Source of the DNA: Syntrophales bacterium | GTDB taxonomy: Bacteria; Desulfobacterota; Syntrophia; Syntrophales; UBA2210 | Assembly (NCBI GenBank): GCA_963666365.2 | Contig: CAXXNF010000002.1 | Location: 480,001 to 544,000 of the forward strand | DNA length: 64,000 bases | Reading direction: 5' to 3' | In this document: in pieces, positions 33,929 to 40,687 of the stretch | Layout of the letters: each line of letters begins with the position of its first letter | Position numbering within the stretch: position 1 is the first letter of the stretch | Notes under the pieces: model-generated | Database searches by the model: none | Told to the model about the DNA's origin: nothing | The model's input: the letters and a program-made list of their open reading frames with translations, nothing else | Position numbers and translations under genes: made by a program

Positions 33929-36112
33929 ATGGACGGTAATAAAGCACGATTACAGGCGGTGACAGCTCTCGCCGAACCCTGTAAGCTTGAAAGAAAATTC
34001 GACTTTATCGGCGATTCAGCCCAGGAGCTTTTCGGATCGAATGTCTTCAGTTTGAGAGTTATGAAGACCTGTCTTCCAAAAGCCGTATTTAAATCGCTCA
34101 AGGAAACCATTGAAACAGGCAGGCCGCTCGACGAAAGCATCGCCGATGTAGTGGCGGCCGCAATGAAGGATTGGGCAATTTCCAAAGGCGCCACTCATTT
34201 TACCCATGTGTTCTATCCGTTGACCGGTTTGACCGCGGAAAAACATGATTCCTTTCTCATTCCGGACGGTGAGGGGGGGGCGATTACCGAGTTTACGGGA
34301 AAATCCCTTATCCAGGGGGAGCCGGATGCCTCCAGTTTTCCCTCGGGAGGCATTCGCACCACCTTTGAGGCCCGTGGCTACACTGCCTGGGATGTGACAA
34401 GTCCCGCCTACATTATGGAAAATTACAATGGATCGACCCTCTGTATCCCCACCGCCTTCATTTCATGGACCGGCGAGGCCCTTGATAAAAAGACGCCCCT
34501 GCTGCGCTCCATGCAGGCACTGGACAAAGAGGCGAGAAGGGTATTGAAGCTTTTCGGACACGAAAGTATCTCAAAGGTCACTACCTATGCAGGGTGCGAG
34601 CAGGAATATTTTCTGATTGATCGAAAGTTTTATAATGCCCGCCCCGACGTGATGCTTGCCGGGCGCACGCTCTTCGGGGCGCCGTCGCCGAAGGGTCAGG
34701 AGTTTGACGATCACTATTTCGGGGCCATAAATGAACGTGTGCAAGGCTTTATGATGGAGGTGGACCGGGAGCTTTTTAAACTGGGCATTCCTTCACGGAC
34801 ACGACATAACGAGGTGGCGCCGGGGCAGTTTGAAATTGCGCCTCTTCACGAACCGGCAAACCTGGCGGCGGACCATCAGCAGATGACGATGACCATTCTG
34901 AAAAAGGTGGCCGAGAGAAACGGCCTTGCCTGTTTGCTCCATGAGAAACCCTTTGCCGGCATCAACGGTTCCGGAAAACATCTTAATTTTTCAATCGGAA
35001 ATACAACGCAGGGGAATCTCTTCGATCCCGGAACCACGCCGCATGAGAATGCGCAGTTTCTTGTATTCTGCGCGGCGGTCATTAGGGCGGTACATCTGAA
35101 CGCACCACTCCTTCGGGCCGTGGTGGCTTCAGCGGGAAATGACCACAGGCTGGGCGCCAATGAAGCGCCGCCGGCGATCATGTCCATCTTTCTGGGTGAC
35201 GAGTTGGCAGGCATATTCGAGCAGATTCTTAAAAATGAAAAAAAATCATCCAGGGCAAACGGCGTCATCAATGTCGGTGTTGACACGCTGCCGGCTATTC
35301 CCCGCGATGCCGGTGACAGAAACCGCACGAGTCCCTTTGCCTTTACAGGCAATCGTTTCGAGTTTCGTGCCGTCGGTTCGAACCAATCGGTGAATGGACC
35401 TCTGGTTGCTTTGAACACGATACTGGCCGATTCACTGGACTACATCGCCACGTCACTGGAAAATACGATAAAGGGCGATCCGAAGAAATTCAACGATGCA
35501 GTGCAGGCGATCGTCAAGGAAATTATGCAAAAGCACAGTGCGGTCATTTTCAACGGAGACGGCTATACAGAAGAATGGCAAAAGGAAGCGGCAACCCGCG
35601 GTTTGCCCAACATGAAAACGACCGTTGACGCGCTTCCGGCAATCACCGCCCGCGATGTTGTCGCTATGTTCGAAAAGCATAAGGTGCTTTCATCGGTGGA
35701 ACTGGAAAGCCGGGAAGAAGTGTACTTCGAGCAGTATTGCCTTTCCGTGAAGGTAGAGGCAAACCTGACTGCAAAGATCGCCAAAACCATTATATTTCCT
35801 GCAGCGATCAGGTATCAAAGCGAGCTTGCCAAAACCTGTGCCGATCTGAAGGCTGTGGGGTATAGCTTTGATACGAATACGCTCGACAGGGTAACCGGTC
35901 TGGTGAAGAAGCTTCAGGACGGCATTGCCGCGCTGGAAGACGCGCTTGCCAGAAGAGGTGGAAAATCAATCAGTGCACAGGCTAAATACTACAGAGACAA
36001 AGTGATTCCGGCCATGAACGAAGTGAGAAGAGCCGCCGATATTATGGAAGGGGTTGTGGCCGACGACCTCTGGGCGTTGCCCATGTACTTTGAGATGTTG
36101 TTTATCAGGTAG
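33929..36112 (+). CDS. glnA: Glutamine synthetase type III
   Basis: 727 aa. [81 protein letters not shown]. Confidence 0.95.
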
Positions 36113-36169
36113 GAACAATGTGAGCAATTGTCTGGTTGCAGAGAATAGTCACATTCAAAGTGAAAAAAC

Positions 36170-36199
36170 TTGACATAAATCTGAGATTTGAAGTATAGA
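36170..36199 (+). promoter_or_regulatory. Candidate sigma70 promoter of the trp leader
   Basis: TTGACA (36170-36175), 18-nt spacer, TATAGA (36194-36199), about 27 nt before the leader ATG. Confidence 0.5.
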
Positions 36200-36225
36200 G
36201 ATGCACATATCTGAAGGGAAGAGAA

Positions 36226-36324
36226 ATGCGGGACGTGAAGTACACTCTCTATCGCAAATTGAATAGGCAACTCTGGTGGTGGACCAACATAGCAGTGTCT
36301 GCCGGCGCACCTTCCCACTTTTAG
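36226..36324 (+). CDS. trpL: trp operon leader peptide (32 aa, three consecutive Trp)
   Basis: Manual translation MRDVKYTLYRKLNRQLWWWTNIAVSAGAPSHF*, with TGGTGGTGG at 36274-36282. Purine-rich RBS (AAGGGAAGAG). Directly upstream of terminators and trpB. Confidence 0.85.
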   Translation: MRDVKYTLYRKLNRQLWWWTNIAVSAGAPSHF

Positions 36325-36350
36325 TAATTGCAGTACCATACATAATAATA

Positions 36351-36390
36351 AAGGGACCGTAGGCAGCACCATTGCCCTCGGTCCTTTTTT
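36351..36390 (+). terminator. Attenuator terminator 1 of the trp leader
   Basis: GGACCG..GGCAG-CACCA-TTGCC..CGGTCC hairpin followed by T6 (36385-36390). Confidence 0.8.
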
Positions 36391-36395
36391 CGTAG

Positions 36396-36434
36396 AAAAA
36401 GGGGCCTGGAGAAATCCATGCCCCCTTTTTTTTT
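36396..36434 (+). terminator. Attenuator terminator 2 of the trp leader
   Basis: GGGGC-C-TGGA-GAAA-TCCA-T-GCCCC hairpin (GNRA loop) followed by C and T9 (36426-36434). Confidence 0.82.
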
Positions 36435-36519
36435 ACTGCGGTTGAAAATATCAGGCAGTATGTAATGCTCGCATGTGAAGGTTTGAGTCGTGCGTGCGAG
36501 ACAACATGGAGGATGACAT

Positions 36520-37758
36520 ATGCAAAAACCGTCAACAAGTAACGATACACCGAAGATGACGTCCATGCCCGACGAAAGCGGTCATTTCGGTCCTCATGGC
36601 GGGCGCTACGTGGCGGAAACGCTTATGACGGCGCTCCTGGAGCTGGAAGGCGCCTACAGAAGGATCTCTCCCGAGCGCATGTTTCAAGAGGAACTGGAGG
36701 TACTGCTGGCCGACTATGCCGGCCGTCCCACTCCCCTCTACTATGCCCGTCGGTTAAGTGAACATCTTGGCGGCGCCCAAATCTACCTCAAGCGGGAAGA
36801 TCTGACCCACACGGGCGCTCACAAGATCAATAACACGCTGGGGCAGGCGCTGCTTGCCCGGTGGATGGGAAAAAAGAAGGTTATCGCTGAAACCGGCGCC
36901 GGTCAGCACGGGGTTGCCACCGCAACGGCGGCGGCGCTCTTCGGCATGGAGTGCATAATATTCATGGGCGTGGAGGATATTCGGCGACAAGCCCCCAATG
37001 TGCTTCGTATGAAACTGCTTGGCGCGGAGGTGATACCCGTTGAGTCCGGCGCCGGAACCCTGAAGGATGCCATGAACGAGGCCATGCGATACTGGGTGGG
37101 CGCAGTGGAAGACACCCACTATGTAATTGGTTCGGTTGCCGGGCCTCATCCCTATCCCATGATGGTACGGGATTTTCAAAAAATCATCGGGGAAGAAGTA
37201 AAAGACCAGATGCGGAATTCCCACGGCCGGTTTCCTGACGTGCTTGTGGCCTGCGTGGGCGGAGGGAGCAATGCAATGGGGCTGTTCCATCCCTTTCTGG
37301 AAACGTCGGCAACGCTGGTGGGGGTGGAGGCGGCGGGAAAGGGCATCGCCTCGGGCAAACACGCGGCGACTCTCGGCGAGGGTTCCCTGGGGGTGCTCCA
37401 CGGCTCAAAGTCCTATGTGCTTCAGGACGAAAGCGGGCAAATCAAGGAAGCTCACTCTATTTCCGCGGGACTTGATTACCCCGGTGTCGGTCCTGAGCAC
37501 TCGTTCTTGAAAGACGCCGGCAGAGCACACTATGTCTCGGTGGATGATGACGAGGCGATGGAGGCCTTTCATATGCTGTGCCGTCTGGAGGGAATCATTC
37601 CGGCATTGGAGAGTTCCCATGCCGTTGCCTATTGTCTCAAGAATGCACCGCACATGTCAAAGGATACGGTGGTGGTGGTGAATCTGTCCGGAAGGGGCGA
37701 TAAAGACCTGGGCATTGTATCGGAGTATGAACGAAGGAAAGGGGAGGTGAGCCGATGA
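36520..37758 (+). CDS. trpB: Tryptophan synthase beta chain (TrpB1 type)
   Basis: [58 protein letters not shown]. Confidence 0.97.
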
Positions 37759-38594
37759 GCAGACTGGATCTCCGATTTGCCGATCTGAAAAAACGAAGTG
37801 AAAAGGCGCTTGTGGGATTTGTTGCGACAGGAGATCCCACATTGCCTGTTTCACTTGAACTTATCACGGCCATGTGCCATGCCGGTCTCGATGTGCTGGA
37901 ACTGGGCGTTCCCTTTTCCGATCCCACAGCCGATGGTCCCGTGATACAGCGTGCCGCGGCGCGGGCCCTGAGGGCAGGTGCGAGCCTTGCAAAAGCGATT
38001 GAAATGACAAAAACCTTGCGGGGAAGAACCGATATACCCATTATCCTTTTCAGCTATTACAATCCCATCTTTGCCTACGGACATGAATCATTTTACCGTG
38101 ATGCCCGCAATGCCGGGGCCGATGGCGTACTTGTCGTGGATCTGCCCCACGAAGAGTCGAGGGAACTGACGAAATGCTGGGAGAGAAACGACGATTTTGC
38201 ATTGATCCGGCTTGTGGCGCCTACCACGCCGGATGAAAGAATGAAAACGATCACGGAGAATGCATCGGGATTTCTCTACCTGGTTTCGAAGACAGGGGTG
38301 ACCGGAGGCGCCGGTGTGGATAGGGACAGCGTGAGGACCAAGGTAACGACGCTGCGCGCCCTTACGGACCTGCCCATATGTGTGGGATTCGGCATCTCCG
38401 GTCCCGAAGATGCAAGAATGCTGGCCCCCCACGCCGACGGAATCGTGGTGGGTAGTGCCTTCGAAAGGGCCATAGAGGATAATATGGATGATCCGGAGCT
38501 TGTCGCAGGGCTGGAGAGACAGGTGAACGAATTGAAGCAGGCGCTGAAACCGCTTGGCGAACATAACAATAATAAAAAGGAGGAAACCCCATGA
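37755..38594 (+). CDS. trpA: Tryptophan synthase alpha chain
   Basis: [46 protein letters not shown]. Confidence 0.96.
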
Positions 38595-39937
38595 TTACAG
38601 CACTGGTGCTTTTTAAGGCGGAAAAGGGAAAAATCCAGAAGCTGGCCATGCAACTGGGTGCCATCGAAGAGGTGGTGGAAGTACTGTCCATTACCGGAGA
38701 ATATGATCTGATGGCAAAGATTCAGGTGCGGGAATATGAGCATCTGTCCGACATTGTGACGGATAAGATGCAGAATACGGAAGGCGTTACGGGGACAAGG
38801 ACGATGATGGCCTTCAAGACGTACAAGTTTCATGAACTGGGTGAAGGCGCGCCCGCGGCAATGATGGTTTCATCAGCCGAAGAGGAAGCGGTCGCACTGC
38901 TGGAGAACGGGAAGAGCACGATCAAGCCGGTCCTTTCAAAGCTGACCGAAAACTTTGATCTGGAGAAGAGCGAAATCTACAGCGTCATCGATGCGATTCA
39001 CGAAGGACAGCTGTCGGAGGTGCAGATTGCCGGGTTTCTGGTGGGACTTCTCAGCAAGGGTCCGAGCATCAAGGAGGTGGCCTATATCGCTCAGGCAATG
39101 CGAAAAAACTGCATTCCCATGCATGTCTCCGTAGGGTCGGAACTCACTGATACATGCGGTACCGGCGGTGGGTTAACCACCTTCAATGTCAGTACGGCAA
39201 ACGCAATCCTGACCGCATCGGCCGGTGTGCCCGTGGCCAAACACGGCAGCAGATCCATATCATCCCCATCGGGGAGCGCCGATGTTCTTGAAGCGCTGGG
39301 CGTCAAAATTGATCTGCAGCCCGAAGAGGCATCCCGGCTGATCGAGGACATAGGAATCAGCTTCATCTATGCGCCGAACTTTCATCCTGTCATGCTCAAG
39401 GTGTTCGGTCCGGAGAATCAGCTGGGCATAAAAACGATATTTTTTACCATCATCGGGCCTCTCATCAATCCGACAGGCGCCCGCAACCATATGATCGGCG
39501 TGTACAAGCCCGAACTGGTCAACATGATGGCAAGCGTAGTGGCAGAGATGGATTTTAATCATGTCATTGTTGCCCACGGGCTTGACGGGCTGGATGAAAT
39601 ATCATTGATCGGAAAGACCTCGCTTGCGGAAATCAGGGGCAGGGAAATCAAATACTTCGAAGTCGCCCCGGAGGATTTCGGTTTCACACGCTGTACCCTG
39701 AAAGATATCGCAGGAGGAACTCCCGATTTCAACGCGAAGGTTATCAGGGATATCTTCTCCGGTCGAGAGCAGGGTCCACGGAGGGATTTCCTGCTCCTTA
39801 ACAATGCAGCCACGCTCTATGTAAGCGGCAAGGCATCGAGCATCCAGGATGGAGTGGCGCTTTCCCGGTCTCTCATCGATTCCGGGGCGGGCGCCCGCAA
39901 ACTGGAAGAACTTGTGGAAAAATCGAATGCCCTTTGA
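38591..39937 (+). CDS. trpD: Anthranilate phosphoribosyltransferase with N-terminal Lrp/AsnC ligand-binding (RAM) domain
   Basis: Residues 1 to about 77: EVLSITGEYDLMAKI...GVTGTRT (RAM signature). From about residue 110: DTCGTGG, FNVST, KHGSRS, GSADVLEALG, GPLINP, GLDEIS. Confidence 0.9.
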   Translation: MITALVLFKAEKGKIQKLAMQLGAIEEVVEVLSITGEYDLMAKIQVREYEHLSDIVTDKMQNTEGVTGTRTMMAFKTYKFHELGEGAPAAMMVSSAEEEAVALLENGKSTIKPVLSKLTENFDLEKSEIYSVIDAIHEGQLSEVQIAGFLVGLLSKGPSIKEVAYIAQAMRKNCIPMHVSVGSELTDTCGTGGGLTTFNVSTANAILTASAGVPVAKHGSRSISSPSGSADVLEALGVKIDLQPEEASRLIEDIGISFIYAPNFHPVMLKVFGPENQLGIKTIFFTIIGPLINPTGARNHMIGVYKPELVNMMASVVAEMDFNHVIVAHGLDGLDEISLIGKTSLAEIRGREIKYFEVAPEDFGFTRCTLKDIAGGTPDFNAKVIRDIFSGREQGPRRDFLLLNNAATLYVSGKASSIQDGVALSRSLIDSGAGARKLEELVEKSNAL

Positions 39938-39949
39938 TAGTGTGCTGTC

Positions 39950-40687
39950 ATGAATAGCAATGCAAACACCGCGCAAGGGGAAAAAAAATCAACGCTTGCC
40001 TCGTTCATACGCACTCGGCAGCGAGAGGGTCTGTTCCCCGTAATATCTGAAGTGAAGGTGCGTTCCGAAAAGGAGGGCGATCTTCTGCGCGGGCGCGATC
40101 CGGTCGCGCTCGCCTGTGAAATGGGCCGGTCAACCATCGCGGGAATAAGCGTCGTGACGGAACCGGATCATTTCGGCGGAGACTTGAACCTTTTGCGCGA
40201 GATCGCCGCGGCGGTAGATTTGCCCGTGCTGCATAAAGATTTCATTACGTCGGAGCGTCAAATCGAGGAATCAGCCGCAGCAGGCGCCTCGGCCATACTA
40301 CTGATCACCGCCATGGTCGATGCAACCCAAATGGCGCGTCTGATTGCATATGCCCGACAGTGCGGGCTTGAAACCCTTGTGGAAGCACACAACATGGAAG
40401 AGGTGAAAATGATAACGTCTCTTCCTTTTGACCTTATGGGAATCAACAACCGCGATATTACCGTTTTCGAAGTGGACGACAACGACGTGGGAAGGACGGA
40501 GGCGCTCGCCCGTTTCTGTAAAAGCAGTCGGCCGCTGATCAGCGAAAGCTCGATCAGTTCTCACAGTGACGTACGGCGCGCGGGCAGAAGCGGCGCCGAT
40601 GCCGTGCTGGTCGGCACGGCGGTGCTGAAAGCGCCCTCAATTTCAGGGTTTTTACGGGAACTGATATCGGTGGGATGGCCGCCATGA
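39950..40687 (+). CDS. trpC: Indole-3-glycerol phosphate synthase
   Basis: ISEVK, ISVVTEPDHFGG, PVLHKDFI, LVEAH, GINNRD, ISESSI, DAVLVG. Confidence 0.9.
   Translation: MNSNANTAQGEKKSTLASFIRTRQREGLFPVISEVKVRSEKEGDLLRGRDPVALACEMGRSTIAGISVVTEPDHFGGDLNLLREIAAAVDLPVLHKDFITSERQIEESAAAGASAILLITAMVDATQMARLIAYARQCGLETLVEAHNMEEVKMITSLPFDLMGINNRDITVFEVDDNDVGRTEALARFCKSSRPLISESSISSHSDVRRAGRSGADAVLVGTAVLKAPSISGFLRELISVGWPP

Follow-up and report, generated by a model that had tools for sequence, protein, structure and literature searches.

The window analysed here, a stretch of 64,000 nucleotides, carries the genes trpB, trpA, trpD and trpC on the forward strand. These are preceded by a leader region with a short open reading frame (ORF) and two closely spaced terminator-like hairpins, T1 and T2, the arms of which can also pair with each other. 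The features of the leader and the operon are as follows (energies are computed folding energies).

36170..36199, forward strand: predicted promoter-like site, read from the sequence (TTGACA at 36170-36175, 18 nt, TATAGA at 36194-36199)
36226..36324, forward strand: leader ORF of 32 codons, MRDVKYTLYRKLNRQLWWWTNIAVSAGAPSHF, from the ORF list, with stop codon TAG at 36322-36324
36266..36306, forward strand: hairpin 1:2, -13.3 kcal/mol in the single-sequence fold
36274..36282, forward strand: run of three Trp codons (TGG TGG TGG) at which the ribosome is proposed to stall; the columns do not vary in alignment A1
36295..36369, forward strand: proposed anti-T1 helix (2:A), -17.7 kcal/mol in a fold of 36293-36372
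36350..36390, forward strand: Terminator 1 (T1; arms A and B), -22.1 kcal/mol, U6 at 36385-36390
36380..36406, forward strand: B:C helix, proposed antiterminator of T2, -15.3 kcal/mol, 12 pairs, 3-nt loop
36394..36434, forward strand: Terminator 2 (T2; arms C and D), -19.3 kcal/mol, GAAA loop at 36411-36414, U9 at 36426-36434
36520..40687, forward strand: trpB-trpA-trpD-trpC, the putatively regulated genes, from ORFs and Pfam matches
36520-37758, forward strand: trpB (Pfam PALP)
37755-38594, forward strand: trpA (Pfam Trp_syntA)
38591-39937, forward strand: trpD with an N-terminal AsnC/Lrp ligand-binding domain (Pfam Glycos_transf_3, Glycos_trans_3N and AsnC_trans_reg)
39950-40687, forward strand: trpC (Pfam IGPS)

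The gene upstream of the leader encodes a type III glutamine synthetase, and the genes on either side of the leader lie on the same strand, with no convergent gene. The promoter-like site at 36170-36199, the second hexamer of which ends in A, was not listed by the consensus promoter scan; homologous leaders have a TTGACA box in the same relative position. The same scan gave no promoter-like site in the interval between T2 and trpB. T2 (U9, -19.3 kcal/mol) sits between the sole promoter-like site and trpB, and in this position it would block the operon if it were unregulated. As in classical attenuators, a short ORF with tandem Trp codons is found ahead of a trp biosynthesis operon, and hairpins resembling intrinsic terminators (T1 and T2) are located between this ORF and trpB. 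The leader ORF ends in ...QLWWWTNIAVSAGAPSHF according to the ORF list, a WWW or WWWW run is kept in the leader ORFs of relatives, and the folding energy of the leader as a whole is 3.3 sd lower than that of shuffled sequences. With regard to the operon itself, the AsnC/Lrp (RAM-type) domain occupies residues 7-77 of the anthranilate phosphoribosyltransferase encoded by trpD (38591-39937), and at the loci L019, L020 and L022 the fused AsnC/Lrp-trpD gene directly follows the Trp leader.

Alternative helices in the trpBADC leader

Segment 1 of hairpin 1:2 holds the Trp codons, and segment 2 is the GUCUGCC box at 36297-36303. The consensus form of this helix, GGUGGACC:GGUCUGCC, is kept in 7/7 close homologues, with one-sided changes only. 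In the alternative anti-T1 pairing, segment 2, together with its extension (36295-36313), is paired to the entire 5' arm of T1 (36351-36369), and pairing of the box GGTCTGCC against GGCAGACC is seen in many relatives. When 36262-36292 was masked, as it would be under a stalled ribosome, and B was not yet made, anti-T1 was the minimum-energy fold of the window, and the findpath barrier from anti-T1 to T1 was approximately 16 kcal/mol, a rough upper bound. In the family duplex test the anti-T1 signal was weak (cognate -16.3 versus shuffled -12.1, sd 3.5), with 11/59 leaders beyond the 5th percentile. The C-terminal half of the leader peptide (TNI.GSAGA.SH., 36283-36324) is conserved among orthologues, and as the same bases also encode segment 2 and the anti-T1 strand, the constraint here may be on the RNA and not on the peptide.

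T1 is formed by pairing of 36350-36359 with 36379-36388 and an inner stem of 36362-36366 with 36372-36376, while the pairing in T2 spans 36394-36432 and leaves the last C before its U-run unpaired; the gap between the two is five bases (36391-36395). An earlier note made from the sequence alone had described tandem terminators with a 5-nt gap, T6 and T9 tracts and a GAAA loop, and all of these are present in the sequence. The 12-pair helix that it placed across the two terminators was also recovered, at -15.3 kcal/mol: GGTCCTTTTTTC (36380-36391) pairs with GAAAAAGGGGCC (36395-36406), two of the pairs being G-U, so that the 3' arm and U-tract of T1 are joined to the A-tract and 5' arm of T2. 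In the order 1:2, anti-T1, T1, B:C and T2, the energies in the window (-13.3, -17.7, -22.1, -15.3 and -19.3 kcal/mol) match the hierarchy expected for the relay proposed below.

Compared to 200 dinucleotide shuffles per element, the z-scores of the folds were -5.8 for T1, -4.3 for T2 and -5.1 for B:C, with 0/200 shuffles as good for each. This null is lenient for B:C, because a C-rich arm and U-tract followed by an A-tract and G-rich arm will pair whichever two terminators are taken, and 288 further terminator-like hairpins from this genome were used as the stricter null. Against the T1 3' arm of the window (duplex of -16.0 kcal/mol), 6.9% of the foreign 5' arms equalled the real one, as did 12.8% of the foreign 3' arms when these were paired with the T2 5' arm of the window. 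In the window alone, the B:C helix is real and only mildly above what the composition of tandem terminators provides. The duplex of -16.0 kcal/mol is one of the weakest in the subfamily, whose other members lie between -15.6 and -21.0 kcal/mol, and this can be linked to the start of T2, which is GGGGCC in the window versus GGGGCG in the orthologues, whereby the upper CCACG:CGUGG extension is lost. For the change from B:C to T2 in the window, findpath gave a barrier of only about 7.7 kcal/mol (a rough upper bound), and B:C may therefore protect against T2 only partly. The minimum-energy folds also contain an 11-pair long-range helix of 36325-36335 with 36434-36444 which encloses both terminators; it is absent from the consensus fold of the seven homologues, the alignment of which ends 8 nt past T2.

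The family of leader cassettes and the conservation of B:C

BLAST-searches in 60 relatives identified six homologous leaders with conserved WWW or WWWW ORFs, T1 and T2. A covariance model (R1) built from seven sequences was used to search 151 genomes of the same order and gave 73 match rows, of which 71 were taken in, two short partial rows being left out. Examination of these 71 rows separated 58 leader cassettes from 13 plain gene-end terminators (L047, L048, L051, L053-L055, L063, L064, L068, L072-L074 and L076), and together with the BLAST-derived L002 and L003 this makes 60 cassettes in 48 genomes. Both T1 and T2, each with hairpin and U-tract, are found in 56/60 cassettes, a share biased towards that form by a covariance model built on two-terminator Trp leaders. 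Three cassettes (L020, L021 and L058, which are orthologous or paralogous leaders) have T1 only, and in L058 a ribosome-binding site and then trpB come directly after T1; such relatives suggest that T1 by itself serves as a terminator. In the remaining cassette, T2 comes after a hairpin 1 that lacks a U-tract; this cassette belongs to the same genome as the window:

G000:C2:1517679-1517843, reverse strand: trpE leader of the same genome (L078), a paralogous cassette with the peptide ...NWWWT...

In this trpE leader the 5' arm of T2 is complementary to the 3' arm of hairpin 1, so that by its sequence it appears to be a his-like version of the cassette, which suggests that the chain of A:B, B:C and C:D is used even when A:B has no U-tract.

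A run of U4-9 (median 6) follows hairpin 1 in 59/60 cassettes, the median U-run being 6 behind both hairpins. The spacer from the T1 U-run to the T2 stem is short (median 11 nt, range 3-29), which suits the fast formation of B:C that a relay would need. Family means for the 56 relatives were -23.2 kcal/mol for T1, -20.8 for T2 and -17.3 for B:C, with B:C weaker than T1 in 55/56 and weaker than T2 in 51/56. A crude peptide classifier assigned 41/59 leaders to a Trp-run type, approximately 17 to a Phe/Tyr-rich type and one to a Val-rich type, although these shares are biased by the Trp-derived model, and the classifier takes the wrong frame at some loci, where Trp runs are read as GGGG, and calls L049 a Leu leader although it is aromatic. 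Common to all leader types are a segment-2 box (e.g. GGTCTGCC), a T1 with the stem GCCGTGG...CCACGGC and a U-run behind it, and a T2 consisting of an A-tract, GGCCGTG...CACGGCC and a U-run, and T2 travels with the leader ahead of different operons.

The genome of the window has at least four cassettes, i.e. those of trpB and trpE, a Val leader with ilvB and a Phe leader with a secreted protein. The two-terminator cassette at G000:C2:2033957-2034028 (reverse strand) has a Val-rich leader ahead of an ilvB-like gene, and that at G000:C2:920383-920460 (reverse strand) has a Phe-rich leader and a gene with a signal-peptide-like start. A further candidate for tandem terminators, G000:C2:997234-997345 (forward strand), proved false, being a repeat unit (CGGTTCATCCCCGCGTGTGCGGGGAAC) at regular spacing which resembles a CRISPR array. 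The B-spacer-C pattern was also looked for in one genome of each species, which gave at least 119 loci, most of them Trp, Phe, Tyr, Leu or Ile leaders, with about a dozen chance matches inside genes. By record label, 80 of these at least 119 loci divide into 29 from Smithella, Syntrophus, Syntrophaceae or Syntrophales, 14 of Desulfobacterales type, 18 from delta-proteobacteria, 8 from other Desulfobacterota or Proteobacteria and 11 from other phyla. Cassettes L092, L110 and L119 are on MAG contigs labelled Aminicenantes, Spirochaetota and Chloroflexota, respectively, which could reflect mis-binning or transfer.

Conservation of B:C was assessed on a MAFFT alignment of the 56 T1-T2 modules (A4), as the model-fitted alignments A2 and A3 are too ragged in divergent leaders for counting pairs. 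In the family consensus the B:C register (columns 32-46 with 73-85) is one base off that of the earlier note, and 86.9% of its 710 cells are paired, compared to 46.3-61.0% when the partner is moved by 1-3 columns and to 89.3% for T1 and T2 on the same alignment. Across the 56 relatives, B:C is thus conserved about as well as the terminator stems. Changes on both sides are found in 20 pairs (183 cells) of T1 and T2 and in five pairs (28 cells) of B:C, and the latter come from few lineages, e.g. the C-G to U-A change in columns 36/81 is seen only in aromatic leaders. The covariation that the earlier note proposed to look for in homologous leaders is there, with a score of 0.255 that was reached by 0/500 shuffles, but across the family it is modest. 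The paired share of B:C is barely above that of the shuffles (86.9 vs 86.1%, with 25/500 shuffles reaching the observed value), because the columns are so conserved.

Swapping the arms of T2 kept the stability of the hairpin (-15.4 vs -15.9 kcal/mol), whereas B:C went from -17.6 to -7.0 kcal/mol, with the natural arm better in 55/56 leaders. Compared to the 5' arms of the 288 generic terminators, the cognate C arm is in the best 5% for 37/56 leaders, and the mean B:C duplex is -17.6 kcal/mol with cognate arms versus -10.4 kcal/mol with generic arms. Combinations of B and C from different family members reach -16.3 kcal/mol and are barely discriminated from the cognate ones (-17.6 kcal/mol), since the stems of T1 and T2 are common to the whole family. 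Given this likeness of the stems, a hairpin that was duplicated and then inherited could also have produced the B:C complementarity without selection.

A proposed relay between the two terminators

We think it probable that the leader is a ribosome-mediated Trp attenuator with a chain of five mutually exclusive helices resembling that of the his leader, in which the middle hairpin is also a terminator, so that one stall controls both stops. With ample Trp, or in the absence of translation, segment 1 would pair with segment 2; with charged Trp-tRNA the ribosome would reach the stop codon and 1:2 would form behind it. A:B would then form T1, and as this occupies B, C would be free to form T2 (C:D), which polymerases that get past T1 would meet. 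When Trp-tRNA is scarce, a ribosome stalled on the three UGG codons would cover segment 1, segment 2 would take A and block T1, and the free B would pair with the adjacent C once this is made and block T2, and with both terminators blocked transcription would enter trpBADC. T1 would have a double role, as a terminator and as the anti-antiterminator of T2, and with one sensing event setting both stops repression would be multiplied while the induced level would not be lowered. The analysis shows the helices with their energies and conservation, and also the variants, while we infer the stalling, the folding order, the termination at each U-tract and the lower leakiness. The earlier note had suggested that the freed 3' arm of T1 is the antiterminator of T2, with T2 as back-up when T1 folds, and the comparative data speak for such wiring: B:C is kept in 56/56 relatives, it depends on the orientation of the T2 arms (the natural one being better in 55/56), and the trpE paralogue keeps the chain. 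With regard to the family as a whole, we lean on balance towards a relay attenuator with two stops under one sensor, which would be a modular cassette reused with Trp, Phe/Tyr, Val, Leu and Ile peptides in Syntrophales and Desulfobacterales, ahead of biosynthetic and other genes, with the segment-2 box and the T1 and T2 stems in common.

The U-tract behind hairpin 1 could also serve only to lengthen B:C by way of the A-tract, in an attenuator like that of the his leader where T2 is the sole stop and hairpin 1 is an anti-antiterminator and perhaps a pause hairpin. The his leader operates in this manner in the part of the published description used here (PMC10989985), the chain is present, with no U-tract behind hairpin 1, in the trpE leader of this genome, and pairing of the U-tract with the A-tract within B:C (pairs 43-46 with 73-76) is found in most relatives. 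We nevertheless regard a sole stop at T2 as unlikely, as it has to accommodate the U4-9 (median 6) behind hairpin 1 in 59/60 cassettes, the G+C-rich stem of hairpin 1 at about -22 kcal/mol, and the three leaders (L020, L021 and L058) in which this hairpin is the only terminator before the gene. Another possibility is that T1 and T2 are both terminators but independent ones, with T1 regulated and T2 a constitutive, leaky fail-safe, and with B:C arising from base composition or from T2 being a copy of T1. The 7-13% of generic arms which equal the B:C of the window, the likeness of the T1 and T2 stems across the family, and the non-cognate combinations which pair nearly as well as the cognate ones are in line with independence. 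A constitutive U9 stop would however cut induced and basal expression alike, with no gain, and the B:C pairing reaches into the upper stems (CCACG with CGUGG), is kept in 56/56 leaders and pairs in 86.9% of cells versus at most 61% when slid. Furthermore, 37/56 cognate arms rank within the top 5% when compared to generic ones, and the T1 and T2 stems are still matched where loops, spacers and leader peptides have diverged, so that independence, too, is an improbable explanation.

A role for T2 outside attenuation appears very improbable. It could act against antisense transcription as a bidirectional terminator, and T2 is indeed symmetric, with an A-tract ahead of the stem and a U-tract behind it, and also scores as terminator-like with the model on the reverse strand; alternatively, it could be part of an attenuator-derived sRNA with two 3' hairpins, and sRNAs derived from attenuators are known from Sinorhizobium, as far as the consulted part of PMC6614838 goes. 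There is however no convergent gene at the locus, where the neighbours are on the same strand, T2 accompanies the leader ahead of different operons, and neither version accounts for the conservation of B:C.

Relation to known leaders

The closest system is the his leader (hisL) of E. coli and Salmonella, in which, according to the sections of PMC10989985 consulted, the stem-loops AB, CD and EF stand against the alternatives BC and DE, and only EF is followed by uridines. On this partial account, the two systems share a single leader peptide with a run of regulatory codons, six segments that form three hairpins when terminating and two alternative hairpins at read-through, and a middle hairpin that is the anti-antiterminator. 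The folds of the trpBADC leader give the same type of chain, with 1:2, A:B and C:D versus 2:A and B:C, and B:C is conserved. In contrast to the his leader as described there, where uridines follow EF only, the middle hairpin T1 has U4-9 in the cassettes and is the sole terminator in some relatives. The last hairpin is thus not alone in being terminator-like, with U6 behind the middle hairpin of the window, and the trpE leader is the exception. There is no sequence relation between the his leader and the Trp cassette.

The E. coli trpL leader, which we take to be the Rfam family Trp_leader (RF00513), likewise has tandem Trp codons in a short ORF ahead of trp biosynthesis genes and a partner of the codon-bearing segment that alternatively pairs with the 5' arm of the terminator, whereas the leader described here has six segments versus four, two terminators, and a stop codon approximately 20 nt beyond segment 2. 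An Rfam cmscan of 35800-36900 with E up to 10 gave six weak, unrelated matches (best E = 0.19), with no amino-acid leader family among them and no match near the gathering score. Tandem attenuators and riboswitches also have two terminators in series in one 5' leader and multiplicative control, but with a separate sensor for each terminator, as in tandem T-boxes, where each of the two terminators in series has a sensor of its own. Here there is one leader ORF, and the 5 nt between T1 and T2 contain no second leader ORF or regulatory codons; with one sensor and 5 nt between the stops, the cassette differs from what is usually called a tandem attenuator. The rimP-leader of some Gammaproteobacteria has a second tandem terminator with a potential antiterminator (Naville & Gautheret 2010, PMC2965389), but it is without a leader peptide, and the portion of that description drawn on here has no two-terminator relay.

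In openly searchable full text, as distinct from subscription-only work, we found no account of one leader peptide relaying to two terminators and nothing on attenuators in Syntrophales. The architecture had been called unfamiliar in the earlier note, yet it is less unprecedented than it seemed there, as it amounts to the six-segment his chain, as far as this is described in the sections consulted, with the middle hairpin turned terminator. The chain is the known part, and the middle hairpin as terminator is the novel part.

Leader-peptide attenuation is a textbook mechanism for which nearly all work has been done in enterobacteria and a small number of further groups, and a large, poorly studied anaerobic lineage (Syntrophales and Desulfobacterales, both by record label) appears to use one cassette for several amino acids. 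If the relay reading is true, it would show how RNA can make an on/off ratio sharper by simple means, with basal read-through being the product of two leak rates, and it would offer a compact design for tight synthetic switches. It would also add a family absent from Rfam and improve the annotation of these genomes, in which genes with such a leader ahead of them, transporter-like and ligase-like ones among them, would be flagged as responsive to amino-acid starvation. With regard to genes behind Phe-rich leader cassettes, the downstream gene starts with MKGVNLASC... in L033, L042 and L045, and the downstream genes in L046, L062 and L077 have a signal-peptide-like start; none of these is obviously involved in Phe biosynthesis.
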